Of a stretch of DNA of 64,000 nt, positions 3,001 through 21,410 are shown one piece after another. This DNA is from Candidatus Omnitrophota bacterium (lineage in GTDB: Bacteria; Omnitrophota; Gorgyraeia; Gygaellales; Profunditerraquicolaceae), in the NCBI GenBank assembly GCA_030650425.1, contig JAUSED010000009.1, forward strand, positions 142,846-206,845, given 5' to 3'. The notes below the pieces were generated by a model that saw only the letters and a program-made list of their open reading frames with translations, was not told where the DNA came from and searched no databases. A program made the position numbers and the translations under genes. The first letter of the stretch is position 1; each line of letters starts with the position of its first letter.

Positions 3001-4787
3001 CTATCCACAGTCCATCATCTACCATCCTTCAAAACTTAGATTATACCTTCGACCACAACGGTAACCTGACTGATCTAAACGATGCCATAAGGAATAAAAA
3101 GCGTAACTATACTTACGATGACTTAGACCGTTTAATCAGCGCAAAAAATACTCCTGCGCCCGGAGGCCTATATGGAGATTTCTACTATAGCTATAACTCG
3201 ATAGGTAATATGTTTGAAAAAACTGAACCAAACAACTCTACCATAACTATGGGCTATGGCAAGGACGCAGGACCGCATGCTTTAACTAGCGTAGGAAATT
3301 GTAACTACCAATACGATGCCAATGGTAATATGACTGTCGGTAAAAACAAAATTCTTAGCTACGACACTGAGAACCGATTACTGAGCGTAAATGAACAAGG
3401 TATAATCACTTCATTCCTTTATGATGGAGATGGAGGGAGGGTAAGAAAGACCACCGGCTCAAATTCTACCACCTACATCGGCTCGCTCTTTGAAAAGGAT
3501 TCCAGCGGTAAAATCACTAAACATATCTTCGCCGGCTCAAACCGGGTAGCCTCTGCTATAGCGAACCCTGATGGAACTAAACAAACTCTATATTACCACA
3601 GCGATCACTTAGGTTCATCTAACGTGATTACCGATCAAACCGGCTCACTTGTGCAATATTGCGAATACACTCCTTATGGTTCGCTTGCCCGTAACGAAGG
3701 CACTGATGTAGCAACCCATAAATTCACCGGTAAGGAACTGGATAGGACTGGACTCTACTTCTACGGGGCGAGGTATTACGACCCGGAGATCGGCAGATTT
3801 ATTACTGCCGATACGATTGTCCAAGCTCCTTACAACCCCCAAACCTTAAACCGCTACACTTATTGTGGTAATAATCCGATTAATTATGTGGACCCAACGG
3901 GGCATTGGTTCTGGGCGTTAGTTTGGGTAATAATAGAGGCGGTAAAGGCGTATGCCATAGCACATCCTATCATCGCTGGAGCCATTGCAGGTGCAATTTT
4001 TAATACTGCTATGAATGCCTCTAATATCAATAGCTTCGGCAGTTTTATGACTTATGCAGCTATAGGCGCAGTAGCGGGCGCGGCTGGTGGAGGTGTTGGA
4101 GCATATATAGGAGCTAGTAGCGCGTTCTGGGGAACGGCCGCAGGCGCTTTTACAGGGGGATTTATTGCTGGGGCTGGAAACGCAGGTTATGGGGGAGCAA
4201 GCTTTGGCCAAGCTATGCTCTCTGGATTAATGGCTGGCGGTATTGCCGCAGCTACAGCAGTGGTAGTTTATGGAGCAATAAAGGTAGGCGAAAAGATAAT
4301 TTCATCAACGCAAAAGGTAGCCACTGCCCAAGCAAAAGCCGTGGGAGAAAAAACACCAGTAGGACAAAAAGATAGCGGTTTAACTACAGAAGTAGGAAAA
4401 GGCACATCTGGTGATCCCATAATTGATGACCCTGGAGTAAAAAAGACGATGGACAGAGCATGGCAAGAATCACTAGATGGTCAAGCAAACGTACATGAAC
4501 AAGGCGGATGGATAGAAGAACATGGTGGATATCGTTGGCCGCAAGGAGAAAGTGGCAGCATTTCGGTTCCAAACACTCGACCATCTGGAACTATAGCGGA
4601 ATTTCACACACACCCCTATTCATCTAGCGAAAGGTTTTTTCCTGGACCGAGTCCGAGTGATTTTTCAGGATTCAATGATCCATCATCAAGCGTATATGGC
4701 ATAAGACATTTTATTGTAGACAGGCAGGGAGTTATCGAATATCATGCTGATGGAAATTGGAATTATATAAAATCTTCTTCAGATTAA
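1..4787 (+). CDS. Rhs/YD-repeat polymorphic toxin, 5'-partial (continues upstream of window): FG-GAP-like repeats, YD repeats, RHS core, ~294-aa C-terminal toxin tip
   Basis: Frame 3 is open from nt 3 with no stop before the ORF-track TTG at 840. Five DFNGDGxTD FG-GAP-like repeats in 1..700; many YDxxGN YD repeats; RHS core RYYDPEIGRF...YVDPTGH at ~3760..3903; variable C-terminal tip follows. Confidence 0.9.
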   Translation, partial: PIGGDFNGDAKTDVGIYNNTTGELKIILSNGGDAKTSQGSFSAGSTWFNFSGASYSWQPFTGNFNGDKYTDFGLYNVDTGEVKAALGIPPQGAGQAGSGFGPLTTWASSAGGYTALSGDFNADGLTDLCLFKKSSGEFKVAFSNSKSFVDESTWITGYATDKDALVSDFNNDGLTDIGYWDKTTGRWYYAISTGDKFVDKGVWLDSFGSSNDESATTGDFNGNGITDAATFDKDQLGIDRWTTRLSTNQPADLLTEIDNGIGGKTKITYTYAASEDNLGLPFPVYVASSISLINTFPTERAATYTQNFSFSGGYFDTTEREFRGFAKVRVTDPITHNYSETYFYQGKSDETDPFKKDGALKGQIDKVIAYDGSNRKISETVNTYEVKKAGPEDRFLGFPSLKEQNTTVYEENGSSLATKNTFSYDNIGNLTGETSYGDITKTGDEKSTSNTYAQAYSYNTTASSGFNRPLESSLKDKDGNIVTQKNFEYDAKGNLAKDIVLISNPLTSSVVTTQTQYSYDDYGNLTSTTNALGKSVTTEYETDLYTYPAKVTNSLAHSISYIYDPKFGVVKSVTDTNGATSSTTYDSFARPVQVKNAYDQVVTTYTYPDFNTKTTTNAVGLFKTEYIDGLGRKYKAISSGEDGASQRNISSEVFYNERGLTASESLAHYVDEDAGNISYIRYRYDKRGRIAETISDFATPMQETGEPGDYSQLTGKDTFSSISYLTPLYVETTDPLGHRKGTLKDVYGNILEVREFIHADNETKPDGAFHTYYEYDTQNNLTKTTDNKGNTTQIFYDSIGRKLKMIDPDMGTWSYEYDILGNLKKQTDAKGQILTFEYDDLNRLAKKSSLRGSEAAEAISEYFYDDPAKDNCVGRLSKITDLSGSTEFFYDKLGREVKSIKSLRGTEGAGTISYTVQREYDVLDRLTKLTYPDGEAVNYTYDTNSGLLKSLRGTAGTEAISYVQNMSYNAKGQSTNILYGNNVQTTYTYGQDLRLANISTIHSPSSTILQNLDYTFDHNGNLTDLNDAIRNKKRNYTYDDLDRLISAKNTPAPGGLYGDFYYSYNSIGNMFEKTEPNNSTITMGYGKDAGPHALTSVGNCNYQYDANGNMTVGKNKILSYDTENRLLSVNEQGIITSFLYDGDGGRVRKTTGSNSTTYIGSLFEKDSSGKITKHIFAGSNRVASAIANPDGTKQTLYYHSDHLGSSNVITDQTGSLVQYCEYTPYGSLARNEGTDVATHKFTGKELDRTGLYFYGARYYDPEIGRFITADTIVQAPYNPQTLNRYTYCGNNPINYVDPTGHWFWALVWVIIEAVKAYAIAHPIIAGAIAGAIFNTAMNASNINSFGSFMTYAAIGAVAGAAGGGVGAYIGASSAFWGTAAGAFTGGFIAGAGNAGYGGASFGQAMLSGLMAGGIAAATAVVVYGAIKVGEKIISSTQKVATAQAKAVGEKTPVGQKDSGLTTEVGKGTSGDPIIDDPGVKKTMDRAWQESLDGQANVHEQGGWIEEHGGYRWPQGESGSISVPNTRPSGTIAEFHTHPYSSSERFFPGPSPSDFSGFNDPSSSVYGIRHFIVDRQGVIEYHADGNWNYIKSSSD
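2546..2579. repeat. GTCATTGCGAGG...GAAGCAATC palindromic element, copy 1, in frame inside rhs (encodes SLRGSEAAEAIS)
   Basis: gtcattgcgaggcagcgaagctgccgaagcaatc; internal hairpin ggcagc-gaa-gctgcc. Confidence 0.8.
2705..2738. repeat. Same element, copy 2, in frame inside rhs (encodes SLRGTEGAGTIS)
   Basis: gtcattgcgaggcaccgaaggtgccggaacaatc; hairpin ggcacc-gaa-ggtgcc, compensatory relative to copy 1. Confidence 0.8.
2849..2882. repeat. Same element, copy 3, in frame inside rhs (encodes SLRGTAGTEAIS)
   Basis: gtcattgcgaggcaccgcaggtaccgaagcaatc. Confidence 0.8.
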
Positions 4788-6684: not shown

Positions 6685-8287
6685 TAGTTACCGCTGAAAA
6701 ACCCCGTTTATGATTACGCGGGTTAGAAGACAAGATTCTACACTCTGTTTTTATTGTTTGTTTTATTTATTTTTTGTTTTTTCATCCCGTTCATTGAAAA
6801 TCCTTGCCTTTAGCCGTATGCCGTAGCAGTTTTAAGGTTCATTGCCATAAGCCCTAAACGTATCCACATCTCTTCACCATCGGGAATATGGTAACGAATA
6901 CGGTCAAGGCCGTATTTGCGCTTAGCCAGGCTTATCTTTGCTTCAATAGAGCACCTTAAGCGGCGTAGGCGCTCCCTAAAAGGCTTGTGCTCTAGATAAG
7001 AGGATTTACCTTTATTCTCAATGGCAATTTTAGAGATATTTTTCTCTTCGGCCAAGAGGTAATTCTTTTTTGACCAGAATCCTCTGTCGGCAGATAACTG
7101 GCTGGGGTATGATCCAAAGCGTTCTTTGTAAGCGTCAATAGCGGTTCCTAATAAGTTTGAGTCTGAGATATTGGCGAAATTTAAGCTTTCTAAAAAGAGG
7201 CACTTGTTTTTAAGGTTAAGCAGGATTTTTGGCCCAAACTCAACCTCAACCGGGTATTTGCCCCTGACCATAGGCCGGAGATGCGGCTTATGCACAGAGA
7301 CGATGCGTTCCTTTACCGGCAGGCCATGATAAACATCTTTTTGCTGGGTAAGGATTGTACTGGCGGTATCTAGAAAACGTTGCGCCTCTTTGATAAATTC
7401 ATCCTTGGCTTTATCGGCAGTATTCTGATTGGGAGCGGAGATGTTATCCGTTGCTTCCTTAAGCTGGTTTATGTTCCTGCGGGAGAATTGCAGGAGTTTT
7501 CTCTGCGCTCTCCCGCGTGATTGCTTGGTATGATGCCTGATCTTTTGATAGGTGATAAATACTCTTCGAGCTGTGCGTTTGTAGGTGCGGTATGCCTTGG
7601 CGCCGAATTGTTTGGCAGTCTCCAGGTATTTTACCGCTTTCCGGCGCACCTTATCCAGCAGTGACACATCTGTAGGATAGGCGATATCAGCAGGCACAAC
7701 CGTAGTGTCGCAGACTAACCGCCTGCCTTTTAGGAGCCTTGTTCTTTGTAAACTTTTGAAGACTTCCTGTTCAATAAGCTTTACTCCTTCAACGCCGATC
7801 TGCTTCCTGAACTTGCTTAAGGTTGAAGGGTTGATAAAATTCTTAGCCTCTTTAAGAGAGACATCGCAGAGGTATTGAGCATAGATATCACGCTTGATAA
7901 GATCAACCAGTCCGGCATCTGAGTAACGGTATAAGTGCTTTAAGATTAACAGCCCGACCTTGGCACGGGATGGCTTGGCTGGACGGCCGTTATCAGCGCA
8001 ATAGAAACGGGAGAGCTTCTCTGATACCGACACCCAGTCTATTGCCTTGGATATCTTGATAAGCTCGTGGTTTTCATCAACTTCTGGAACGACGAACCAG
8101 TCGTGGGTGAAGCTAAACTGATGCTCTTCTGATTCTTTGGTATACATTTTTTAGGCCTCCTCATTTGTGGTTAAATGCACGATTCTCGACGATATTATAC
8201 CAAATTCCGTGCACTTTGAGGAGAATTATTACAACTATTTTTAACCACTCTCGTCGATAAACATCGAGGGTTTTTCAGCGGTAACTA
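6685..8287 (-). mobile_element. IS1182/IS5-family insertion sequence with 20-bp terminal inverted repeats
   Basis: tagttaccgctgaaaaaccc at 6685..6704 and its exact reverse complement at 8268..8287 flank the transposase ORF. Confidence 0.85.
6810..8147 (-). CDS. IS1182/IS5-family transposase (InsH-type N-terminal domain plus DDE)
   Basis: 445 aa; N-terminus FTHDWFVVPEVDENHELIKISKAIDW...YSDAGLVDLIK matches the InsH/DUF772 N-terminal domain. Confidence 0.8.
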   Translation of the reverse strand: MYTKESEEHQFSFTHDWFVVPEVDENHELIKISKAIDWVSVSEKLSRFYCADNGRPAKPSRAKVGLLILKHLYRYSDAGLVDLIKRDIYAQYLCDVSLKEAKNFINPSTLSKFRKQIGVEGVKLIEQEVFKSLQRTRLLKGRRLVCDTTVVPADIAYPTDVSLLDKVRRKAVKYLETAKQFGAKAYRTYKRTARRVFITYQKIRHHTKQSRGRAQRKLLQFSRRNINQLKEATDNISAPNQNTADKAKDEFIKEAQRFLDTASTILTQQKDVYHGLPVKERIVSVHKPHLRPMVRGKYPVEVEFGPKILLNLKNKCLFLESLNFANISDSNLLGTAIDAYKERFGSYPSQLSADRGFWSKKNYLLAEEKNISKIAIENKGKSSYLEHKPFRERLRRLRCSIEAKISLAKRKYGLDRIRYHIPDGEEMWIRLGLMAMNLKTATAYG

Positions 8288-8545
8288 TGTATTTTCAAAA
8301 GTTACATAAAGACAGTTTTTGAAAATAATCGGGAAGAAAAATATTTTTTAACAATGTACTGAACAGATAACAGACACTTTCCCAGCCAATCGGTACAGTG
8401 TACCGCGCTCAAGATGGAGGGTGTACCTTTGGATCCTAACGGTATTCTTCCGCTGAGTTTACAATTTTTGCCCTGACAGGTTACAAGGGGTATTGATGAG
8501 GTGTAAGGATGAGTTTTATCCCGGCATAAAAATATCCTACTCCTA

Positions 8546-8574
8546 CTTGACAACTCTAAAAGTATGGTGTATAC
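8546..8574 (+). promoter_or_regulatory. Consensus sigma70 promoter for TA module 1
   Basis: TTGACA-17 nt-TATACT. Confidence 0.6.
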
Positions 8575-8621
8575 TTTAAATGTGGCGACATTTGTTGCCA
8601 CATAATAAAAAGGGGGTTATC

Positions 8622-8930
8622 ATGAGCGCAGTAATTGATTTAATAAAAGCAGAGCATGTAGGAGTAAGGGAATTAAGAGACCACTTGTGTGGATTTATGA
8701 AAAACAAAAAACCTGCCATAGTGGTAACCGAAAGAGGGGAACCTATAAGGGTAATTATGTCTTACGCAAAGATGGTTGAATTACTAGAATTCTTTGATGA
8801 AGTTTCAGATCCGGATACTATGAGGAATATCCATGAAGGCGTAGAGGCAATTAAACAAGGTTCTAAAGGCGTTTCTTTTTCGGGAACCTATAAAAAATAT
8901 CATTCAGCGGTCCAAGCGGTAAAAAAATGA
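8622..8930 (+). CDS. Phd/YefM-family antitoxin (module 1)
   Basis: AGGGGG RBS then ATG at 8622; N-terminus ...VRELRDHL...KPAIVVTERGEPIRVIMS typical of Phd/YefM; 4-nt overlap with downstream toxin. Confidence 0.75.
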   Translation: MSAVIDLIKAEHVGVRELRDHLCGFMKNKKPAIVVTERGEPIRVIMSYAKMVELLEFFDEVSDPDTMRNIHEGVEAIKQGSKGVSFSGTYKKYHSAVQAVKK

Positions 8931-9238
8931 GCTACGATATTAGATATCCAACACCAAGGCTGAAAAAGTATTTTGACGAATTTTTGCAAAAAAAGATCCC
9001 GCATAAAAATCAGAGGGAAAAAATAGTAGATGAAGTAGATGGCCTCAGAGACAACCCCAGGCCATTCCATAAAAAAGGGTTTACGGAAATCAAACCGCCG
9101 ATGGCTGTTTCTTATCATTTGGCAGAATACAGATTAAGAATTGGGGATTATCGGATTTTGTATAATGTGGACGATAAGCAGAAGATCGTCTGGATATTAG
9201 ATATAAGGATACGCACGGAGAAAACTTATAGAGGATAG
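8927..9238 (+). CDS. RelE/ParE-family toxin (module 1)
   Basis: C-terminus YRLRIGDYRILYNVDDKQKIVWILDIRIRTEKTY matches the RelE/ParE signature. Confidence 0.8.
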   Translation: MSYDIRYPTPRLKKYFDEFLQKKIPHKNQREKIVDEVDGLRDNPRPFHKKGFTEIKPPMAVSYHLAEYRLRIGDYRILYNVDDKQKIVWILDIRIRTEKTYRG

Positions 9239-9330
9239 AGAAGAAGAAATGAAATGGTAACGGGAAACAGACACTTTCCCAGCCAATCGGGACATAGAAG
9301 AGGGTATACTAGTCATTAAAATAGTCATTT

Positions 9331-9372
9331 TAACCTTGACGGGTTTAGAATTATGATTTATACTTTAAATAG
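9331..9372 (+). promoter_or_regulatory. Sigma70 promoter for TA module 2
   Basis: TTGACG-17 nt-TATACT; same TATACTTTAAAT block as module 1. Confidence 0.55.
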
Positions 9373-9404
9373 CAGGAAGAAAAATATTTATGGAGGCAAA
9401 AGAT

Positions 9405-9674
9405 ATGACTACATTAACTGTTACTGAAGCAAAGGCGCATTTTTTGGAGCTTATCAGAAATTCTGACGAAAGGCTTGAAAGATTTATCATAACTAAGCAG
9501 GGAAAGCCGGCAGCGGTAGTAATGAATGCCGATGAATTTGAAGGGTGGCTTGAAACTTTAGAAATAATGTCTGATAAAAAAGCTTTAGGAGAAATTAGAA
9601 AGGCAAAAAGAGAATTAGGACTGGGCAAGACTAAGAGCTTTAAAGAAGTTGTTGGCAGGCTGCAAAAAAATTAG
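9405..9674 (+). CDS. Phd/YefM-family antitoxin (module 2)
   Basis: GGAGG RBS before ATG 9405; MTTLTVTEAKAHFLELI...GKPAAVVMNADEFEGWLETLEI. Confidence 0.75.
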   Translation: MTTLTVTEAKAHFLELIRNSDERLERFIITKQGKPAAVVMNADEFEGWLETLEIMSDKKALGEIRKAKRELGLGKTKSFKEVVGRLQKN

Positions 9675-9675
9675 T

Positions 9676-9933
9676 ATGAGCTATCCTATCAGATTTTCGA
9701 ATACCGCTTCAGGCCAATTCCAAAAACTCAAAGATAAAAAACTTAAGGGAAGAATTACTTCAACATTAGAGTATATTGCCAGCGAACCCCTTATGGGCAA
9801 ACCCTTACAGGCGGAATTCAAAGGCTGTTATTCATATCGGGTTAGTGATTACAGAGTAATATATGCTTTCTCAAAGGCAGAAAAATCTATTGGCATAATT
9901 AGAATTGATCATAGAAGGGAAGTTTATAGGTAA
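9676..9933 (+). CDS. RelE/ParE-family toxin (module 2)
   Basis: ATG at 9676 two nt after antitoxin stop; C-terminus GCYSYRVSDYRVIYAFSKAEKSIGIIRIDHRREVY. Confidence 0.8.
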   Translation: MSYPIRFSNTASGQFQKLKDKKLKGRITSTLEYIASEPLMGKPLQAEFKGCYSYRVSDYRVIYAFSKAEKSIGIIRIDHRREVYR

Positions 9934-11201: not shown

Positions 11202-12500
11202 ATGAGTAAACGCTTAATTGTGGTATTAGCGCTTGTTTTTGTAGTCGGCTTAACCTTCGCCGCCTACGCTGAAGTGCAAAATGTGAAGGTGTCCGGAGAC
11301 TTGAATTTCTTGGCCATTGGCCGGGATAATTTCGATCTCGGAGTCGGAACACCAAACCTTAACAAAGGAAGGCTTTTTGGTACTCAGGCCCGTATCAGGA
11401 TTGACGCTGATCTGACTGATAATGTTATGACTACGATCAGGTTGATTAACGAAAGGAACTGGGGAAATAATACAACCGCTAACACTAACGCTAAAATTGA
11501 TCTGGATTTAGCCTATGTAACCCTGAAAGAATTCCTTTATTCTCCTTTGAGCGTTACAGTTGGCCGCCAAGAGATGAGATTCGGTAATGCTTTGATTATC
11601 GGTAACGGCAACCTTTTAACTAACGGTGCAGCCGATCTTTTTGGTTTCCCGAGAGACCTATCCTTACGGAAAGCGTTTGACGGCATCAAAGCAGTATTAA
11701 ACTACGATCCTTTGGTTGTTGATCTCATTTACGCAAAGGTCAGCAACGTTAATACCAACACTTCAGATTCCGACAATCTATTTGGTGTCAATGTTTCGTA
11801 TGATGTGAATAAGAAATTAAACGTTAATCCTTATGTGTTCGTCAAAGAAGATAAATCAGCAGTAGGAAATGCAGCTGGTATCGATAAAAAGAGAAACTCG
11901 GTTGTCACAACCGGTGCCCTCATCAGCGGTTCACCGATTGAAAATTTAAATACATCCTTAGAAGGCGCAGTACAATTTGGTAACAATAGGAACACTGCTG
12001 TTGCGAAAAAGCATGGCGGGTTCGCCTTACAAGGCTTGGCAGATTATACTTTCGCTAAAGTAAAATATACTCCGATGTTAGGGGCAGGTTACACTTATCT
12101 CTCCGGTAACAATAAAAAGGCTGGATGGGATGCAATGTTCACTGATCAGAGGCTAAACAGCATTACCTATGCGATATTGCCTTTTACTAACATGCAAGTA
12201 GTTAATATTAAAGGTAGCGCAAAGCCAATTGATGACGTGACTCTTATGGCGAATTACGGTTTCTATCGCTTAAACAAAGCAGTCACTACCATTACCAATG
12301 CTTATACCTCAACTGCTATGAACATGAATACTAGTAAAAAAGACTTAGGCAGTGCCCTTGATTTAACTGCACTGTATGACTATACCGAAGATGTACAAAT
12401 AGGTCTTACCTATGGTGTATTTTGGAAAGGTACTGCTTTCGTCGGGAGTAAAGGCGACTCAGCTACTCAGTTAATCGGTTCAATGAAAGTTACATTCTAA
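11202..12500 (+). CDS. Outer-membrane beta-barrel (porin-like) protein
   Basis: Signal peptide ...LTFAAYA; alternating beta-strand pattern; C-terminal ...SMKVTF with terminal Phe; AAGGAGG RBS. Confidence 0.6.
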   Translation: MSKRLIVVLALVFVVGLTFAAYAEVQNVKVSGDLNFLAIGRDNFDLGVGTPNLNKGRLFGTQARIRIDADLTDNVMTTIRLINERNWGNNTTANTNAKIDLDLAYVTLKEFLYSPLSVTVGRQEMRFGNALIIGNGNLLTNGAADLFGFPRDLSLRKAFDGIKAVLNYDPLVVDLIYAKVSNVNTNTSDSDNLFGVNVSYDVNKKLNVNPYVFVKEDKSAVGNAAGIDKKRNSVVTTGALISGSPIENLNTSLEGAVQFGNNRNTAVAKKHGGFALQGLADYTFAKVKYTPMLGAGYTYLSGNNKKAGWDAMFTDQRLNSITYAILPFTNMQVVNIKGSAKPIDDVTLMANYGFYRLNKAVTTITNAYTSTAMNMNTSKKDLGSALDLTALYDYTEDVQIGLTYGVFWKGTAFVGSKGDSATQLIGSMKVTF

Positions 12501-12522: not shown

Positions 12523-12558
12523 CTACCCTCGGGAGAGAAATCTCCCGAGGGTTTTTTA
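12523..12558 (+). terminator. Rho-independent terminator
   Basis: ccctcgggagagaaatctcccgagggtttttt: 10-bp GC stem plus T-tract right after the OMP stop. Confidence 0.8.
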
Positions 12559-12626: not shown

Positions 12627-14186
12627 ATGTTATATCTCGCCTTTATCTTCCATATGCACCAGCCGTATTATAAAGATCTGCTCACGCGCCAGACAGATCT
12701 GCCTTGGGTTAGGCTGCATGGGGTCAAAGACTATCTGGATATGGTGCAAATCCTTGAGAAATTCCCCAAGATTCATCAAACCTTTAACATTGTTCCGTCA
12801 TTACTGGAACAGGTCGAAGATTACACTGCCAGAGAGGTTAAGGATAAATTCCTCGAGCTTTCCTATAAACGAGCCGAAGATTTAGCCCCTAATGATAAAG
12901 ATTTTATCCTCAGTAATTTCTTTTCAATCAATAAAGAAAAGGTCATCGCGTTTTTCCCGCGTTATTATGAATTGTATTTCAAGAAGCAAAAGAAACAGGA
13001 ATTCAACACTCAAGATTTCTTAGACCTGCAGGTCTGGTTCAATTTAGCCTGGATTGACCCGTGTTTCCGCCAAAGATTTCCGGAATTAAAAAATCTTGTT
13101 TCCAAAGGAAGATTTTTTAGCGAAGAGGAGAAACAAATAGTTCTAGATAAGCAACTGGCTATCTTGGAAGAAATTATTCCTAATTACAAAAAGTTTTGCG
13201 GCTCCGAACAAATAGAATTAAGCGTTAGCCCGTATTATCACCCGATATTGCCGCTGCTTTACAGCACTAATGCCGCCAAAGAAGCTAATCATCAAAGCCT
13301 TTTGCCAAAGTCGGAATTCCGATATCCCGATGACGCAAAAGCTCAAATCGAATCTTCGGTTAAGTTTTACCGGGAGAGATTTAGAATAGCCCCAAAAGGG
13401 ATGTGGCCTTCCGAAGAATCAGTCTGCGAAAATATCCTGCCGCTTATGATCAACGCCGGAATAAAATGGATTGTCACCGACGAGGCCATACTCTTTAAGT
13501 CCTTAAAAAAGAAAAAACGGGAAACGGCGCTGCTTTATCAGCCGCATTTATTAAAGAGAGATAACGGGGAATTAAAAATAATCTTCCGTGACCGCAATCT
13601 TTCGGACTTACTCGGCTTTGTTTACCATACTTGGAAAACGGAAAACGCGGTAGCGGATTTCATAGAGCACCTGAATAATATAAACAAGGCATTTAAGGGT
13701 GAGGATACTCTAGTCACAATAGCTATGGACGGAGAGAATGCCTGGGAATATTATACTAATGATGGCCATGATTTCTTAGAGCTGCTTTACCAGCGTTTAT
13801 CCGAATCCGATTTTATCAAGGTAACCAGAGTATCCGAATATTTGGAAAAACATCCGGTTAAATCTAAAATCCGGCATTTAAGCGCGGGTTCATGGATCTA
13901 CGGAAATTTTAATAAATGGATGGGGAATCCTTATAAGGTAAAAGCCTGGGAATGGCTGCTTGAGGCAAGAAAAAAACTCGAGAAAATTAACGCGGATGGA
14001 ACAAATACAAAAACCGCATTGGCTTGGAAACAAATATATATCTTAGAAGGAAGTGATTGGTTCTGGTGGTACGGTGAAGACCCGGATGGCTCTTTTGATA
14101 AGCTCTTTCGCCTGCACTTAAGAAACTTCTATACGATCATCGAAGAACCCATTCCGAAATATTTAGAGAACCCTCTAAGTACTTGA
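12627..14186 (+). CDS. Glycoside hydrolase family 57 enzyme (alpha-glucan branching enzyme or amylase-like)
   Basis: N-terminal FIFHMHQPYY (GH57 HQP motif); MDGENAWEYY catalytic-region motif; 519 aa, in the size range of GH57 branching enzymes. Confidence 0.75.
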   Translation: MLYLAFIFHMHQPYYKDLLTRQTDLPWVRLHGVKDYLDMVQILEKFPKIHQTFNIVPSLLEQVEDYTAREVKDKFLELSYKRAEDLAPNDKDFILSNFFSINKEKVIAFFPRYYELYFKKQKKQEFNTQDFLDLQVWFNLAWIDPCFRQRFPELKNLVSKGRFFSEEEKQIVLDKQLAILEEIIPNYKKFCGSEQIELSVSPYYHPILPLLYSTNAAKEANHQSLLPKSEFRYPDDAKAQIESSVKFYRERFRIAPKGMWPSEESVCENILPLMINAGIKWIVTDEAILFKSLKKKKRETALLYQPHLLKRDNGELKIIFRDRNLSDLLGFVYHTWKTENAVADFIEHLNNINKAFKGEDTLVTIAMDGENAWEYYTNDGHDFLELLYQRLSESDFIKVTRVSEYLEKHPVKSKIRHLSAGSWIYGNFNKWMGNPYKVKAWEWLLEARKKLEKINADGTNTKTALAWKQIYILEGSDWFWWYGEDPDGSFDKLFRLHLRNFYTIIEEPIPKYLENPLST

Positions 14187-14785
14187 CAGGCAATGCTTTT
14201 TATGCTATAAATAGTAAAATTGAAATGGATAAAAAAGAGATCTACGAACATTTAGCCAAGATTTATCTGGATGCCTCATCTAAAAAAAAGAAAAGGCATA
14301 AAGCCTACCCGAAACTTTTAAATAATCTGTTTATCATAGGAATATTTATAGTCATCGGGCTGACTACTACATTATTTTCTTCCGCAACTAGAAAAAACCT
14401 AAATACTGAAACCGCGCTCATCCTGCAAAATGACCACGCAAAGATAAACTTCAATTTTGACCCGGCAAAAAAAGAAACTTACACCCTGAATTTAAAACGG
14501 CTTAACCTAACTCACTCCAAGCAACTGGCTTTCTCAGTGAGAAATATAAATCCTAAAGATAAAATAACCCTGCGCGTTGAATTTACCAATGCCTTCAAAG
14601 AAAAATCCGAAGTCTACGTCAGAAACATCCCTTCTAAATGGAAGGATTTTGAAATCAGCCTCTCTGAATTTAAAAATATAAATGACTGGTCTGAAATCAC
14701 AAGCCTTGTTTTTTCGGTCGAAGAGTGGAATGCCTCGCAGAAAAAAGGCGTAGTTTATATAGATAATGTCCGGCTTTTAAAGTAA
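14183..14785 (+). CDS. Hypothetical membrane-anchored protein, translationally coupled to the GH57 gene
   Basis: Overlaps GH57 stop by 4 nt; one TM segment LFIIGIFIVIGLTTTLF; exact start uncertain. Confidence 0.4.
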   Translation: MTGNAFYAINSKIEMDKKEIYEHLAKIYLDASSKKKKRHKAYPKLLNNLFIIGIFIVIGLTTTLFSSATRKNLNTETALILQNDHAKINFNFDPAKKETYTLNLKRLNLTHSKQLAFSVRNINPKDKITLRVEFTNAFKEKSEVYVRNIPSKWKDFEISLSEFKNINDWSEITSLVFSVEEWNASQKKGVVYIDNVRLLK

Positions 14786-14819
14786 ACCGGGGTTATACAA
14801 CCCAAAGGAGGAAAATTTT

Positions 14820-15956
14820 ATGCGCATAATCGCTATCACTAATCAAAAAGGCGGTTGCGGTAAAACGACGACATCGGTTAATTTAGCGGCATCTTTAGCT
14901 ACCAATGGCCGGAAGGTACTACTCATAGACATTGACCCGCAGGCGCACGCTAGCTTAGGGCTGAACATAAAATCTTCTTTAAGTATTTATAATGTCTTAT
15001 CCAAAATCGCGCATCAAAGGGCAAAATTAGAAGATATCATTCAAAACATAGGCCCGGACTTCGACATCGCCCCATCCAGCATCATCTTGAGCACATTAGA
15101 ACAGGAATTAGCCGGAGAGATAGGCAGAGAATCCCGGCTCTGGGATACCCTAAGCAATCTTAAGGGAGTCTACGATTACGTGCTGATTGATTGCCCTCCA
15201 AACCTTGGAATCTTGACCATTAACGCTATCCGCGCAGCCAACGAAGTGATTATACCGGTAGAAGCCAGCAGGTTCTCGTTGGAAGGAATGGACCAATTAA
15301 TCAGCATAGTGAACTTAGTCAGGGACCGCCTGAATCATACGGTGAGCGTGAGAGTATTAGTCACTAATTTCGATTCGCGCCTCGCGCATTCTTTTAAAAT
15401 GCTGGAAAAGATAAAGGTCGATTTTAAGGATAAGCTCTTCAGTAACATTATCCACGTGAACGTAAGGTTAAAAGAAGCTCAAAATCAAGGAACACATATC
15501 TTTAATTATGATAAATACAGCCGCGGCGCCAAAGACTACTTTAGCCTTTCACGGGAAATTATTACTCTGGAAGATGGGTCTAAGGCTCCGCTTAAACCGG
15601 AAAAAGAACTTAAGATCACGGTTAAACCTGCCGCGGCTTTAGAGAAAAAAATGAATGAAATACTTAAAAAAGAACTCCCTAAGCTTACGGAAGTGAAATT
15701 CTCGATCCTTGCCCCGGAAGCAAAAGACGTCTATGTTGCCGGCGAATTCAATAACTGGAAACTTGAAGACGCCACCCGAATGACTAAGAGTAACGGAAAC
15801 GGAACTTGGAGCAAGGCGTTAAGTTTATCCAACGGTAAATACCGCTATCGTTTTGTGATTGACGGAAATTGGGTCGAAGACTCCAGCAACCCTTTAAAAG
15901 AAGTTAATCCTTACGGCTCAGTTGATTCCCTGATTGAAATCAGCGCTAAAAAATAG
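14820..15956 (+). CDS. ParA/MinD-family ATPase fused to a C-terminal CBM48/AMPK-beta-type glycogen-binding module
   Basis: Deviant Walker A KGGCGKTT; C-terminus VKFSILAPEAKDVYVAGEFNNWK...GTWSKALSLSNGKYRYRFVIDGNWVEDSSNP matches the CBM48/GBD pattern; AAAGGAGG RBS. Confidence 0.8.
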   Translation: MRIIAITNQKGGCGKTTTSVNLAASLATNGRKVLLIDIDPQAHASLGLNIKSSLSIYNVLSKIAHQRAKLEDIIQNIGPDFDIAPSSIILSTLEQELAGEIGRESRLWDTLSNLKGVYDYVLIDCPPNLGILTINAIRAANEVIIPVEASRFSLEGMDQLISIVNLVRDRLNHTVSVRVLVTNFDSRLAHSFKMLEKIKVDFKDKLFSNIIHVNVRLKEAQNQGTHIFNYDKYSRGAKDYFSLSREIITLEDGSKAPLKPEKELKITVKPAAALEKKMNEILKKELPKLTEVKFSILAPEAKDVYVAGEFNNWKLEDATRMTKSNGNGTWSKALSLSNGKYRYRFVIDGNWVEDSSNPLKEVNPYGSVDSLIEISAKK

Positions 15957-16012: not shown

Positions 16013-16408
16013 ATGGTATTAAAAAAGAAGACTAAGAAAAAGGTGGTTACGGTTAAGAAAAAGGCGTTAAAAAATAAAACTCCGAAGAAAATAGCTACAA
16101 AGAAACCCGCGAAGAAAAGCGTATCCAAAAAGAAACCGGCAGTTATCAAAGTTAAGAAAGCAAAGGAGAGAGTAATAGGAACCATTACGCATTATTTCCC
16201 GCATGTGCAGGCAGCGGTAATCAAATTAAAGGCTCCTTTAGCGGCGGGACAGACAATTAAAATTAAGGGCCATACCACAGATTTTATCCAAGCCATAACC
16301 TCGATGCAGATTGACCGCGTTCCAATAAATTCAGCTAAGGCCGGCCAAGAGATCGGATTATTGGTTAATTCCAGGGTCAGGCAGGGAGATTTAGTTTATA
16401 AAGCCTAA
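16013..16408 (+). CDS. Lysine-rich histone-H1-like protein with a C-terminal beta-barrel-like domain
   Basis: AAGGAGG RBS then ATG; about 50 N-terminal residues are more than 50% Lys (KKKTKKKVVTVKKKALKNKTPKK...). Confidence 0.5.
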   Translation: MVLKKKTKKKVVTVKKKALKNKTPKKIATKKPAKKSVSKKKPAVIKVKKAKERVIGTITHYFPHVQAAVIKLKAPLAAGQTIKIKGHTTDFIQAITSMQIDRVPINSAKAGQEIGLLVNSRVRQGDLVYKA

Positions 16409-16922: not shown

Positions 16923-17249
16923 ATGCAGACACGCGGCAGGCCAAAAAAATACAGGATAGTGCATCTTGACCCTAAAATAAGCCAGTTTAGCCCAAGGGGC
17001 AGGCCCGGCAGGCCTAATGAAGTGGACCTGAGCATGGATGAATTCGAGTCATTACGGCTGGCTGATCATATGGGATTACCGCAGAAAGAGGCAGCTAAAT
17101 CCATGCGTATATCTCAACAAACCTTTAGCCGGATATTAAAGAGAGCGCATAGAAGCATTGCTAACGCATTAGTTAATGGCAATACCATAAGAATACAGGG
17201 CGGCCATTACGTAATCAGTTCCCGAGAAGAGAATGAGAAAACTATCTGA
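16923..17249 (+). CDS. DUF134/UPF0251-like HTH DNA-binding protein
   Basis: PRGRPGRP...LSMDEFESLRLADHMGLPQKEAAKSMRISQQTFSRILKRAHRSIANAL (sigma-70 region 4-like HTH). Confidence 0.65.
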   Translation: MQTRGRPKKYRIVHLDPKISQFSPRGRPGRPNEVDLSMDEFESLRLADHMGLPQKEAAKSMRISQQTFSRILKRAHRSIANALVNGNTIRIQGGHYVISSREENEKTI

Positions 17250-17895
17250 CTTAAGCAAAGAAAAATTAACCAGCCTATACCTTAACGAAAAGAAATCCAT
17301 GGGAGATATAGCTAAAATCTATGGCGTTTCCCGGACAGCGATATATAAAAGACTGAAAATATATGCTATAAAACAACGTTCTAAGTCAGAAGCAAGGATT
17401 GAAGCACAGAAACAAGATAAACTTCCCCAATTAATTGAGAAGGTTAAAAAGGTTACTGGCTCAGAACATAAAATAACGCCATCTAGACACCAGAAAGGAT
17501 TATATTACTTTCATTTCGCCAGAGAAAAACTTGCGGCGGATTTAGCGAAACTCGGTGTTTTACCCAGAAAGAGCCTAACAGTCAAATTCCCGCAGGTTCC
17601 AGAAAAACACCTGGCTGATTTCATAAGAGGAATCTTTGACGGTGATGGCAGTGTGTTCTTTGATAAGCGCCGGCCAAAATTCCCCTTACGATCAAAGTTT
17701 GTTAGTGGTTCGGAGGCCTTTATAGAAGGATTACAAAAGGCCATTGAAGATTATTTAGGTATGCCTAAAAGGACAATTTATAAACAAAAAACCAAGAATG
17801 GATGGAGTCATATGTTTATATATGGACATAAAGACAGCACAAAATTGTTTGAAATTTTATATAAAAATACCCAAAATGGGCTATTTAGAACGTAA
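17233..17895 (+). CDS. Free-standing LAGLIDADG-family homing-endonuclease-like protein with N-terminal HTH
   Basis: LAGLIDADG motif FIRGIFDGDGSV; N-terminal HTH MGDIAKIYGVSRTAIYKRLK; overlaps upstream gene by 17 nt. Confidence 0.7.
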   Translation: MRKLSDLSKEKLTSLYLNEKKSMGDIAKIYGVSRTAIYKRLKIYAIKQRSKSEARIEAQKQDKLPQLIEKVKKVTGSEHKITPSRHQKGLYYFHFAREKLAADLAKLGVLPRKSLTVKFPQVPEKHLADFIRGIFDGDGSVFFDKRRPKFPLRSKFVSGSEAFIEGLQKAIEDYLGMPKRTIYKQKTKNGWSHMFIYGHKDSTKLFEILYKNTQNGLFRT

Positions 17896-18406: not shown

Positions 18407-19510
18407 TTATCTACGGGTTAAAATAACTTGGCTGGGATAAATTGTACCATCTCCAAAACGAGCGTTAATCCTATCTACTGCCTTCACCAAAGCCTCTCTT
18501 CGTTTTTCCTCAACTAATAAAGGAAGGTAGCCTTGCCGGCTTAAACCACTGGCAGTTACTCCCAGAGCCCGGATTTTATGGCCTTTTTTGGACATCCTAG
18601 CCATTATTTTAAGGGATCTCAGGTAGATCTCATAACTATCATTAGTGGCCATAGAGAAGGTTTTTTGGGCCTCAACATTGCCTATCTGTGGGCCATTTAG
18701 CCAAAGGTGAACCGTCTTAGCGGTCAGGCTTTGCTGGCGCAGACGCTCACCAACCATCTCAGATAACAGCCTAATCCAAGCAGTAATAAACTGGGGGTTT
18801 GCAAAAGCCCTTGGTAAGGTATATGAATGGCTTATAGACTTAGGGTACTTTTGAGTTTCCTCGGTTTCCTCAAACTTACCGGGATTTGCATCAAAGAATT
18901 CCGGTAAGTTTAGGTATACGTCCCAACAGGTTTTTAAGCCTTGAGCTCTTAAGCTTTGGCCGGTTTTGCCAGCCATCCCGCAGAGTTTCTCAAGCGGAGC
19001 GCGGCTTAGAATCTCCTTAAAATTACTCTCATCGATTAAAGTTATACCTTTTGGCTTATTAATTTTAGAGGCGAGCTTGGCTAAAAGCCAATTTTTAGCA
19101 ATACCAACCGAAGCAGTGATATTAAAGTTTGCATATATCTGCGCTTGAATTTGGACAGCTAATTGAAGCGGTTCAGAATAATCCTGAAGATCCATCTGGA
19201 ATTCATCCACTGAAGCATAATTCAGGCTGAAGCCGTAACCCTTAAGCAGCTCAAAGATCTGCTCTGAGGTCCAAATATACTTACCTTGGCTAGCCGCCAC
19301 AAATTCCAAATTTGAGCAAATACTAAAAGCTTCCCTTGAAGGCATACCGGAATGAATCCCTAAACGCTTGGCTTCATAACTGGCGGCGCAAACCACGGTA
19401 TGCATTTTATTAGCGCGCGAACCGATAATTAAGGGTTTATCTTTAAGGCGCGGGTTAATCGCCTGTTCAATTGAGGCAAAAAACGCATCCATATCAATAT
19501 GCAGGATCAT
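18407..19510 (-). CDS. dinB: DNA polymerase IV (Y-family)
   Basis: MILHIDMDAFFASIEQ N-terminus and overall Y-family architecture. Confidence 0.85.
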   Translation of the reverse strand: MILHIDMDAFFASIEQAINPRLKDKPLIIGSRANKMHTVVCAASYEAKRLGIHSGMPSREAFSICSNLEFVAASQGKYIWTSEQIFELLKGYGFSLNYASVDEFQMDLQDYSEPLQLAVQIQAQIYANFNITASVGIAKNWLLAKLASKINKPKGITLIDESNFKEILSRAPLEKLCGMAGKTGQSLRAQGLKTCWDVYLNLPEFFDANPGKFEETEETQKYPKSISHSYTLPRAFANPQFITAWIRLLSEMVGERLRQQSLTAKTVHLWLNGPQIGNVEAQKTFSMATNDSYEIYLRSLKIMARMSKKGHKIRALGVTASGLSRQGYLPLLVEEKRREALVKAVDRINARFGDGTIYPSQVILTRR

Positions 19511-19531
19511 ACTTAAACGAACCCGAGATTT

Positions 19532-19840
19532 TTATTGGATTATTTTATCAATCTGCCAGCGGAAGGTGGAATTATTAAATGATATTTGATAGAGCTGGCC
19601 GGCGCAAGCTACCGAAAAGTAATTGATTAAGGCCTGGCCAAAGCGTTCCTGCCAGTTATAGGTTATGTTATCGATCTTGTATTCCTTATTATTCCAAAGG
19701 AAAGTTTTAGGATAAATCCTGGCGTGCTTAAAATATGCCAGGACTTCGATACGTTCGGATAGATCATCCGGATTAAAACCGCATTTTTCCGGCTCAAACC
19801 TGTCCCAGCGAGCTTTAGGATTAAAACTATTTTGGTTCAT
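19532..19840 (-). CDS. Hypothetical protein
   Basis: 102-aa ORF downstream of the KilA-N gene, same strand. Confidence 0.3.
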   Translation of the reverse strand: MNQNSFNPKARWDRFEPEKCGFNPDDLSERIEVLAYFKHARIYPKTFLWNNKEYKIDNITYNWQERFGQALINYFSVACAGQLYQISFNNSTFRWQIDKIIQ

Positions 19841-19858
19841 TTTTACAAAGGCGTCAAC

Positions 19859-20674
19859 TCATCTCCTTAGCTTTCTTACCCCTCGATCATCGGTAAGTAA
19901 TTTCATCTGTTGAATGGCAATTCTATTCAGCTTTAATAATCTTTCTTCCTGATTAAAGTTTTCGCTAATAAATAAGGCGTTTAAATTCTCAAGATTTGAA
20001 AGACACACTAATTGAGATATATCAGCATAATCTCTAATGTTGCCCTTCTTCTCGGAATTTTTATCGCGCCAATCTCCGGCTGTCATACCAAACAAAGCCA
20101 TATTCAAAACATCAGCTTCTGAAGCATAAATATTATTTATTTGCGCTTTTGTAAGCTCATCAGGAATCAAATTTTCTTTTATGGCGTCAGTATGTATACG
20201 ATAGTTAATTTTTGTAAGATTACGCCGAATATCCCAACCAAGCTGTTTTAGTTCCTGATCTTTTAAACGCTGGAATTCCTTAATGAGATAAAGCTTAAAC
20301 TGAGGCGATATCCAAGATGCGAACTCGAAAGCAATATCCTTATGGGCGTAGGTGCCGCCGTTTCGGCCAGATTTAGATATTAATCCAATCGCGCTCGTTG
20401 TCTCTATCCATTTTTGCGGAGATAATACAAAGTAATTTACCCCAGCTTCATTCCTAAACTGGTCGAATTCGACCAGTTTAAAACCGGAATTGTTTAATTT
20501 CTCCCATAGGCCCAAAAATTCAATAGTACTTCTGCTTCGTAACCAATTTTTAACAATGTCAGCAGGCGCATCGCTATTTCTGTATTTGGCGATATCAGTC
20601 AGAGATATGTAACTCTGCTGTTCTCTGGATATTATGGAAATATCTCTACCTTGAACGTATAATATTTCTGCCAT
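19859..20674 (-). CDS. KilA-N domain protein
   Basis: N-terminus ILYVQGRDISIISREQQSYISLTDIAKYRNSDAPADIVKNWLRSRSTIEFLGLWEKLNN matches KilA-N. Confidence 0.7.
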   Translation of the reverse strand: MAEILYVQGRDISIISREQQSYISLTDIAKYRNSDAPADIVKNWLRSRSTIEFLGLWEKLNNSGFKLVEFDQFRNEAGVNYFVLSPQKWIETTSAIGLISKSGRNGGTYAHKDIAFEFASWISPQFKLYLIKEFQRLKDQELKQLGWDIRRNLTKINYRIHTDAIKENLIPDELTKAQINNIYASEADVLNMALFGMTAGDWRDKNSEKKGNIRDYADISQLVCLSNLENLNALFISENFNQEERLLKLNRIAIQQMKLLTDDRGVRKLRR

Positions 20675-20804
20675 TTTATCTTTAGCTCCTCTTTTAGCTT
20701 TGGCTATCTTTCCTCTTTTTGTACTATTTACCCTTATGTCTACCTTTTCAAGGGAAAATCATGATTACTGCTTAAAAACTGTTCAAATGTTTGGACCCTG
20801 GCAG

Positions 20805-21410
20805 TTAATATTTCCTAATCACCGTCATCAACTTACCAATGATCTTGAATTCTTCAAAAATTGGCGGGTAATTCGGGTTAGCCGCTTCCAAATGATATTT
20901 ATTACTTTTACGCGCCAGCCTTTTTAAGGTAACTTCGTTATTCTCCAAAAGCGCGGCCACAATTTCATTATTCTCGGCATAGGGCTGTTTCTTGATGATC
21001 GCCACATCGCCATCCAGGATCCCGGCATCAATCATACTGTCGCCTTTAACCCTTAAAGCAAAAACATCATCAAAGCCTAAACGGCCCAGAAACAAATTAT
21101 CCACATCGACATAACCCTGGATTTCTTCATAAGCCAGATTCGGCTTACCAGCCATGATCGTACCAATTATAGGAATCTTATTAAAACCAGCGCGTTCAGT
21201 TAACTCAATCGCCCGAGATTTATTATTCATCCGCCTGACCAATCCTTTCTGCTCTAAAGCCTTTAGATAGTCCCTTACTGTACCGGTAGATTTAAACCCC
21301 AGCTCCCCTGCTATTTCCCTAATCGTAGGAGGCAGCCTCTCCCCTATCCGTTTACGGATAAAATTAAGCACTTTTTCCTGCTTTGGAGTCAAAAACGGTT
21401 TATCTCGCAT
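20805..21410 (-). CDS. lexA: LexA repressor
   Basis: N-terminal wHTH (LTPKQEKVLNFIRKR...VRDYLKALEQKGLV) plus S24 peptidase region GDSMIDAGILDGDVAIIKKQ; starts 3 nt after recQ stop. Confidence 0.85.
   Translation of the reverse strand: MRDKPFLTPKQEKVLNFIRKRIGERLPPTIREIAGELGFKSTGTVRDYLKALEQKGLVRRMNNKSRAIELTERAGFNKIPIIGTIMAGKPNLAYEEIQGYVDVDNLFLGRLGFDDVFALRVKGDSMIDAGILDGDVAIIKKQPYAENNEIVAALLENNEVTLKRLARKSNKYHLEAANPNYPPIFEEFKIIGKLMTVIRKY

Follow-up and report, generated by a model that had tools for sequence, protein, structure and literature searches.

A widespread fusion of a Soj-type ParA ATPase with an AMPK-beta-type CBM48 module, and its possible role in positioning glycogen granules

The window, i.e. 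the whole 64,000-nucleotide stretch of DNA analyzed here (Candidatus Omnitrophota bacterium, assembly GCA_030650425.1, contig JAUSED010000009.1, positions 142,846 to 206,845), encodes a 378-residue protein that, judged from its sequence, is a member of the ParA/MinD ATPase superfamily carrying a C-terminal member of the CBM48 carbohydrate-binding family. This domain architecture, and the facts that hold for the family as a whole, are near-certain; the Pfam and PDB evidence confirms the fusion proposed in an earlier note, made from the letters of the stretch alone, and the open reading frames (ORFs) lie where that note had placed them. The protein belongs to a large and undescribed family, a Soj-type ParA subfamily in which the ATPase itself contains a putative cargo-binding element. 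That it forms a ParA-type system tethering and positioning glycogen granules on the nucleoid is a proposal to which we give an even chance. The earlier note knew of no characterized example; likewise, no published description of a ParA-CBM48 protein, or of active positioning of glycogen in bacteria, was found in a literature coverage that is incomplete.

The fusion protein and its two domains

The fusion gene and its parts are as follows.

14820..15956, + strand: ParA-CBM48 fusion gene (378 residues; Pfam AAA_31 plus AMPK1_CBM; an identical protein is present at NCBI)
14820..15584, + strand: Soj-type ParA ATPase domain (residues 1-255; from mapping onto PDB 8ray at an E-value of 2e-52, Foldseek and conservation)
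15585..15680, + strand: flexible linker (residues 256-287; the AlphaFold 2 model is disordered over residues 254-286, predicted local distance difference test score (pLDDT) 31-54)
15681..15953, + strand: CBM48/AMPK-beta-type module (residues 288-378; from Pfam, PDB alignment, the AlphaFold 2 model and conservation)

The identical NCBI entry is named 'MAG: AAA family ATPase [Candidatus Omnitrophota bacterium]'. In a Pfam search both domain types exceed the curated cut-offs, with the N-terminal region matching AAA_31 (E-value 1.6e-55, residues 1-176, 188 bits versus a cut-off of 27), as well as CbiA (2.4e-20) and CBP_BcsQ (6.5e-11). The AlphaFold 2 model, calculated from an input alignment with 51 homologues, comprises a Soj-like ATPase, a disordered linker and a confidently predicted beta-sandwich. 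Within the linker, a conserved helix (residues 272-284) is specific to the clade of the window protein; across the family linker length ranges from 1 to 376 residues. No second ParA and no second CBM48 is encoded elsewhere in the 64-kb window.

Profile and structure matches identify the C-terminal domain as a genuine CBM48/AMPK-beta-type module, for which glycogen binding is predicted. It is matched by AMPK1_CBM (PF16561; E-value 3e-13, residues 300-377, 50.2 bits versus a cut-off of 26.8) and by CBM_48 (PF02922; 3.9e-8, 33.9 bits versus 22.4), and the higher score of the former assigns it to the AMPK-beta subtype. When the isolated domain was compared with the PDB, the carbohydrate-binding modules of AMPK beta1/beta2 (1z0n/1z0m) were matched over residues 300-375 with an E-value of 3e-10. 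The model of the domain is a beta-sandwich of seven predicted strands with pLDDT values of 85-91; it is not the Ig-like, non-binding fold that the earlier note had raised as a contrary outcome, and the aromatic residues are kept. W313, R344, W351, Y365 and D369 align with W100, K126, W133, L146 and N150 of AMPK beta1, of which W100, K126, W133 and N150 are reported to be the cyclodextrin contacts (Polekhina et al., 2005). Among 205 fusion proteins compared for residue conservation, the predicted sugar site is strongly conserved, with W313 in 205, W351 in 200, Arg or Lys at position 344 in 197, and Asn or Asp at position 369 in 190. As a separate observation, a set of giant proteins (P0121, of 1812 residues, P0177, P0211, P0228 and P0251) have 6-18 tandem CBM48 modules, which are about 40% identical to that of the fusion; the ATPase domain is absent from them.

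The ATPase domain has the deviant Walker A motif KGGCGKTT that the earlier note had recognized, with its signature lysine K10 and second lysine K15, together with D37 and D39 of motif 2 and D124 of Walker B. Two residues, C13 within Walker A and H43, which replaces the motif-2 Asn, are specific to the family. The PDB sequence matches are to chromosomal ParA/Soj proteins (Myxococcus xanthus ParA, 8ray, E-value 5e-52; 1wcv, 3e-39), the nearest solved relatives being M. xanthus ParA and the Thermus and Helicobacter Soj proteins. Comparison of the model using Foldseek gave a template modelling (TM) score of 0.87 to Soj/ParA, at 36-44% identity, and of 0.73 to BcsQ, at 18-20% identity.

The protein nevertheless scores below the NCBIfam equivalog cut-offs for ParA_partition (112.6 versus 180 bits), BcsQ (TIGR03371; 75.3 versus 157.85) and MinD (TIGR01968; 65.5 versus 212.9), and the AlphaFold 2 model has CBM48 at the C terminus, not a MinD-type amphipathic membrane-targeting helix. 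No cellulose-synthase (bcs) genes were found near the fusion, a crude test for the ParB GERR motif was negative throughout the 64-kb window, and no parB-like gene adjoins the fusion in 79 loci. By family criteria, the fusion is not a chromosomal ParABS ATPase, MinD, BcsQ or McdA, so far as its matches indicate.

K10, K15, D37, D39 and D124 are kept in 204-205 of the 205 fusions, and H43 in 199. R187, which aligns with R189 of Bacillus subtilis Soj, is present in 189; position 216 (R216 in the window protein), which aligns with R238 of M. xanthus ParA, is Lys or Arg in 177, and position 218 (K218 here) is Lys or Arg in 178. R187, R216 and K218 form a putative DNA face, in which the Soj DNA-binding residues are retained. 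In M. xanthus ParA, the N-terminal peptide of ParB is bound in a pocket that includes L150, L152, L155, L187, L192, Y81 and E117 (10.1101/2025.03.14.642875). Mapping onto 8ray places L129, I131, I134, L166, L171, Y57 and E96 of the fusion at these positions, respectively, so that the pocket is mostly retained and still hydrophobic. The joint conservation of catalytic, DNA-face and sugar-site residues suggests that all three activities are under joint selection; the family thus maintains its sugar site and partner pocket together with the residues for ATP turnover and a DNA face like that of Soj.

Distribution, partners and gene neighborhoods

Among Omnitrophota, the proteins at least 70% identical to that of the window form more than 120 clusters (at 90% identity), and both domains are present in all of them. 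When representatives of clusters formed at 50% identity were searched exhaustively, 127 of the best 150 matches were fusions; these have lengths of 279-698 residues and identities to the window protein of 35-52%, and 109 of the 127 have KGGCGKTT. One genome per GTDB species was scanned, which gave at least 594 confirmed loci, 80 of which were kept, and the fusion is encoded in 72 of these. The carriers span about 12 phyla: the Planctomycetota (Phycisphaerae, Sedimentisphaerales, Tepidisphaerales, Pirellulales and Planctomycetales), Myxococcota, Desulfobacterota/Thermodesulfobacteriota, Omnitrophota, Auribacterota, Rokubacteria, Eisenbacteria, Zixibacteria, Gemmatimonadota and Acidobacteriota, with one Spirochaetaceae bin and, via cluster look-up, a Nitrospirota member. 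Taxa are given as labelled by the submitters and some may be wrong, e.g. three 'Planctomycetales' bins have an Omnitrophota-type cluster. The shared signatures C13 in Walker A and H43 point to a single origin; the fusion apparently arose once and is not the sporadic occurrence that would have counted against the earlier note.

Outside the window clade, which comprises the window and 15 further, independent loci (fusion identity 46-84%), the fusion gene is followed by two fast-evolving genes, d1 and d2, which were located with separate, non-iterated profiles. The d1 product (about 280-330 residues) is paralogous to ParA; its Walker A motif is degenerate, and its profile matches the ATPase domain of the fusions at E-values of 1e-6 to 1e-11. 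The d2 product (about 190-270 residues) has a core, 'G.IDLLAVD...IIDFE' (e.g. L036:12053-12748; loci are designated here by L numbers), and an acidic C-terminal tail, 'L[ST]xEE..F'. Its only similarity is a sub-threshold one to the nuclease-fold (PD-(D/E)xK) domain of NucS (PDB 2vld, E-value 0.05; Pfam NucS_C, 0.0023); the catalytic Lys is missing from d2, which may therefore be a DNA-binding protein that does not cut. A single protein combines d1 and d2 in Planctomycetota (L015, L020 and L050).

At 32 of the 62 non-clade fusion loci, the first protein encoded downstream of the fusion begins with '(K)LGRGLxD[VI]SHxFLS'; such a gene follows the fusion in most lineages other than Omnitrophota, and an example of the peptide from d1 is KLGRGLEDVSHLFLS. 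It matches LGRGLxxLI, the ParA-binding, ATPase-activating motif of chromosomal ParB, for which L11, R13, L15, L18 and I19 have been identified in M. xanthus (10.1101/2025.03.14.642875). A profile of the peptide gave 34 matches with independent E-values below 0.05 among 5,270 ORFs, falling at those 32 fusion loci and at two loci that encode ParA only; all but one lie directly downstream of the ATPase gene, the single exception being a second copy in L036. Peptide-encoding genes occur across L005-L086, e.g. L025:3339-4277, L029:3770-4695 and L085:11052-11711. In Gemmatimonadota, Rokubacteria and Acidobacteriota the peptide is borne directly by d2.

The second copy in L036, an Omnitrophota locus, belongs to a DUF4912 protein whose Lys-rich tail is long (L036:13725-15608) and is identical to the d1 peptide at 14 of 15 positions. 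The DUF4912 gene lies directly upstream of one encoding a GH57 glycoside hydrolase (L036:15806-17386). DUF4912-GH57 pairs are also present 2-9 kb from the fusion in L037 (L037:3-503) and L052 (L052:8249-9343), so that in all three d1/d2-type loci that have GH57 a DUF4912 gene is directly beside it.

Eight ParA-only relatives with Cys13/His43 were observed (L027:10001-10753, L028:9953-11230, L039, L043, L048, L054, L072 and L076), from Vulcanimicrobiota, Desulfobacteraceae, Atribacterota and an Actinomycetota-labelled bin; no alternative cargo domain was recognised on them. L027 and L028 both have the LGRGL-peptide gene downstream, indicating that the ATPase-partner pair exists without CBM48.

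The neighborhood in the window itself is of a different type, as follows.

11202..12500, + strand: Alginate_exp-family outer-membrane porin (Pfam E-value 8.3e-30; a syntenic neighbor)
12525..12552, + strand: terminator-like hairpin (12-bp stem and T-tract; between porin and GH57 genes)
12627..14186, + strand: GH57 glycoside hydrolase (PF03065, E-value 4.8e-64; Aquifex-amylopullulanase-like)
14225..14785, + strand: ORF200 (186 residues; start shared with relatives and the NCBI call)
16013..16408, + strand: ORF143 (131 residues; Lys-rich tail and EF-Tu-domain-II-like barrel)

In 15 of the 16 window-clade loci, including those with a fusion identity as low as 52%, ORF200 immediately precedes the fusion; ORF143 is near the fusion in 15 (within 8 kb in most), and GH57 and the porin in 12 each. 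None of the four is conserved around the fusion in the other 62 fusion loci. The gaps between GH57, ORF200, the fusion and ORF143 are 38, 34 and 56 nucleotides, with no terminator between them comparable to that preceding GH57; on this basis the four genes probably form one operon. The hairpin makes it unlikely that the porin gene is a member of this operon, and the porin is better regarded as a separate transcription unit. In L002 (L002:11098-11424) and six other Omnitrophota loci, a membrane protein of about 108 residues, with a weak MamF_MmsF match, is encoded between the fusion and ORF143; it is not present in the window.

The GH57 protein had been labelled branching-enzyme-like in the earlier note, and this assignment is rejected: it gives a full-length match to the Aquifex aeolicus GH57 amylopullulanase (PDB 9jlq/8zyi, E-value 2.5e-88), scores only 17.4 bits against the Thermus branching-enzyme equivalog NF041566 (cut-off 920), and has conserved regions in keeping with an amylopullulanase-like enzyme. 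All five regions conserved in GH57 are kept, and the catalytic Glu/Asp pair (WPSEES, DGENAW) is intact; these regions and the dyad have been defined previously (PMC12106739). The A. aeolicus enzyme both degrades and debranches, with glycogen, pullulan and starch as substrates.

ORF200, read in the earlier note as a 200-residue membrane protein coupled to GH57, is indeed an upstream membrane protein, but its start (MDKKEIY, 14225), which is shared by all relatives and by the NCBI annotation, leaves the 38-nucleotide gap after GH57, and translational coupling by overlap is rejected. The predicted protein has an invariant cytoplasmic N-terminal helix, one transmembrane helix and a CBM11-like beta-jelly-roll, the last of which is predicted to be outside the cytoplasm. 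ORF143 has a histone-H1-like, Lys-rich tail followed by a barrel whose profile matches, weak yet consistent, are to domain II of SelB/EF-Tu/eIF5B (E-values 0.03-0.15), and some of its homologues are named 'translation elongation factor-like protein' at NCBI.

Both proteins had been suggested as ParB- or McdB-like partners; neither carries the ParB-like activating peptide of the other lineages. In the N-terminal helix of ORF200 hydrophobic residues are spaced at i, i+4, i+7 and i+8, which fits L11/L15/L18/I19 of ParB. The case for a ParB-like peptide here is weak: the residue at i+2 is Glu, not Arg or Lys, and any amphipathic helix has such spacing. For ORF143, a regular-expression match, '[RK]x[IV]GxITHYF', looked specific and was rejected; the motif is the first strand of the conserved EF-Tu-domain-II-like barrel, and the peptide profile has no match to ORF143.

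Elsewhere in the window, an insertion sequence (IS) transposase (DUF772/DDE_Tnp_1; 6810-8147) and two ParE/RelE-Phd toxin-antitoxin pairs (8580-9238 and 9390-9933) form a block, 6810-9933, that is an insertion relative to the syntenic loci L002 and L003. A helix-turn-helix plus LAGLIDADG_3 homing-endonuclease-like ORF (17233-17895; Pfam E-value 1.9e-6), which overlaps the end of a DUF134 gene (16923-17249), is also absent from L002 and L003. On the - strand, 18407-21410 encodes a DinB-type polymerase (18407-19510), a conserved 102-residue ORF, a KilA-N protein (19859-20674; Pfam E-value 9e-23) and LexA (20805-21410); the DinB, 102-residue and LexA genes are syntenic in relatives, and that for KilA-N is an insertion in this genome. 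Positions 840-4787 encode a 1315-residue protein of RHS-repeat/TcdB-like polymorphic-toxin type (Pfam RHS_repeat, E-value 3.9e-36).

A proposed glycogen tether and competing explanations

Our proposal, which is the best-supported reading and which as noted we consider an even call, is that the ATP-bound dimer would bind the nucleoid non-specifically via R187, R216 and K218, with its two CBM48 modules, on flexible linkers, holding alpha-glucan (glycogen) particles. Granules would thereby be tethered to, and spread across, the nucleoid instead of undergoing polar exclusion, so that both daughter cells could inherit them. ATP hydrolysis would free and reset the tether, rendering it dynamic; in most phyla, the trigger for hydrolysis would be the LGRGL peptide borne by the product of the gene directly downstream. 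In the window clade, d1 and d2 would be replaced by ORF200 and ORF143, and the ORF200 helix or the basic tail of ORF143 may take the role of the partner. In 12 of 16 window-clade loci the putative operon also includes GH57, which supports a link to alpha-glucan, and co-transcription of GH57 would suggest that granule handling is coupled to degradation. In Escherichia coli, glycogen is passively excluded from the nucleoid and accumulates at the old pole, leading to unequal inheritance (PMC12706056; PMC4836754).

Several observations weigh against this proposal. In canonical ParA systems it is the activator, not the ATPase, that is carried by the cargo; the arrangement in the fusion would probably give dynamic tethering or hitch-hiking rather than a classical gradient ratchet, though dynamic hitch-hiking on the nucleoid would still counter both the exclusion of glycogen and its unequal inheritance. 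The ParB-peptide pocket is imperfectly kept, V116 and D110 of M. xanthus ParA being replaced by Q95 and I89, respectively, and the 64-kb window has neither an LGRGL-type peptide nor d1 or d2. The glucan-enzyme neighborhood described in the earlier note holds for one Omnitrophota clade, but by Pfam no enrichment in glucan metabolism is present among 119 neighbors of 24 non-clade loci. The putative DNA-binding nuclease fold of d2, a sub-threshold match, may point to DNA as the cargo. The CBM-like domain of ORF200, being predicted as extracytoplasmic, could not bind cytoplasmic glycogen.

The fusion might alternatively be a sensor of glycogen status, in which an AMPK-like CBM48 regulates a ParA cycle acting on the nucleoid, the cell cycle, the division site or a locus bound by d2. 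The AMPK-beta subtype of the module would fit such a role, as would the apparently non-glucan neighborhoods outside Omnitrophota, where d1 and d2 have no carbohydrate-related domain and d2 bears a faint likeness to the nuclease fold of NucS. We nonetheless judge it unlikely, because a disordered linker of 1-376 residues is better suited to a tether than to allosteric contact, no alternative cargo is evident, and in L036 the partner peptide is present on a GH57-associated DUF4912 protein.

Less likely again is a BcsQ/FlhG-like role, specific to Omnitrophota, in which the ATPase organizes ORF200, porin and GH57 into a membrane complex that takes up, exports or turns over polysaccharide. The persistence of ORF200 beside the fusion, even at 52% fusion identity, the combination in ORF200 of an invariant cytoplasmic helix with a CBM-like ectodomain (both predicted), the syntenic Alginate_exp porin and the CBP_BcsQ match are all consistent with it. 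By contrast, the hairpin separates the porin from the operon, both the BcsQ equivalog score (75 versus 158 bits) and the TM scores (0.73 to BcsQ, 0.87 to Soj) point away from BcsQ, no other phylum has ORF200 or the porin beside members of the family, and the Soj DNA-binding residues are retained.

The label 'chromosome partitioning protein' used by JGI implies a housekeeping Soj with an accessory domain. Such an assignment is in accord with the chromosomal ParA/Soj identity of the nearest solved relatives, the kept DNA face and ParB-peptide pocket, the ParB type of the partner peptide, and the high conservation within Omnitrophota (at least 70% identity in more than 120 clusters). We regard it as improbable, given that no parB adjoins the fusion in 79 loci, where d1/d2 or ORF143 are downstream instead, that the GERR motif was not found in the window, that the ParA_partition score is below cut-off, and that C13 and H43 differ from canonical Soj. 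Moreover, the fusion is present in Myxococcota and Planctomycetota, phyla that possess canonical ParABS systems. That of M. xanthus is an example (10.1101/2025.03.14.642875).

It is just as improbable that the module binds a protein or another glycan, with a cargo other than the glycogen granule: some CBM48-fold domains do act in protein contacts, as in AMPK, and the related giant proteins with up to 18 module copies could be extracellular, but the positions reported as the cyclodextrin contacts of AMPK beta1 are the best-conserved ones of the domain.

Returning to the glycogen tether, a more general form is that about 12 phyla own a dedicated, ATP-driven glycogen-partitioning system, i.e. a ParA with a fused adaptor that is switched by an LGRGL peptide via a pseudo-ParA/NucS-like partner or, in one genome, a DUF4912 protein; we consider this possible, with slightly more doubt than belief. 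ParA/MinD ATPases are known to position chromosomes, plasmids, carboxysomes, chemoreceptor arrays and flagella, and storage polysaccharide is not among these cargoes. Were the proposal to hold, glycogen would join carboxysomes as an 'organelle' that is actively segregated, ParA being located on the cargo and not on the matrix only. The fusion would then be the first ParA system with its cargo-binding element within the ATPase, so constraining models of how ParA gradients move cargo. Unequal glycogen inheritance in E. coli bears on ageing and cell asymmetry (PMC12706056; PMC4836754), and the fusion makes active partitioning of a carbon reserve testable, in that it names a protein, mutants (W313/W351, K15 and R187) and an activating peptide. 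It also provides a function-linked handle on the unannotated d1, d2 and DUF4912 proteins and on two Omnitrophota-specific proteins.

Comparison with known systems

Chromosomal ParABS systems share with the fusion the ATPase fold (at 36-44% identity), the deviant Walker A motif, the DNA-binding Arg/Lys residues and most of the peptide pocket; in other phyla the resemblance extends to a partner that begins with an LGRGL-type peptide. The fusion differs in having the C-terminal CBM48, C13 and H43, and in lacking ParB, with no helix-turn-helix, CTPase domain or parS context. Its partner is instead a degenerate ParA paralogue with a second protein, both absent from the window.

BcsQ is likewise a ParA/MinD-fold ATPase tied to polysaccharide biology, as reflected in the Pfam CBP_BcsQ match. 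The fusion, however, falls below the BcsQ equivalog cut-off, is structurally further from BcsQ than from Soj, and has no bcs genes nearby.

The AMPK beta carbohydrate-binding module, plant PTST and yeast Atg45 all employ CBM48 as a non-catalytic adaptor for glycogen or starch, with the key Trp kept as in the fusion. By contrast with the fusion, these are eukaryotic proteins in which the module is attached to a kinase, a coiled-coil scaffold or an autophagy receptor, rather than to a positioning ATPase.

PhaM and PhaF tether polyhydroxybutyrate/polyhydroxyalkanoate granules to the nucleoid, enabling equal inheritance, and have Lys-rich, histone-H1-like tails. They are alike in concept, since they place a storage granule on the nucleoid, and their tails may be compared with those of ORF143 and of the DUF4912 protein in L036. 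Neither PhaM nor PhaF is an ATPase or has any sequence relationship to the fusion, whereas the tether formed by the fusion would be ATP-driven.

McdAB and the orphan ParA/MinD systems (ParC/PpfA, FlhG and PomZ) resemble the fusion in having a dedicated, non-DNA cargo and a small adjoining partner, even though similarity to McdA itself is low (PDB 6non, E-value 2e-12). In those systems a separate adaptor both binds the cargo and stimulates the ATPase, whereas in the fusion the cargo module is on the ATPase. By analogy, the fusion would work most like McdAB-type positioning and, conceptually, like PhaM/PhaF, but with the adaptor fused to the motor.

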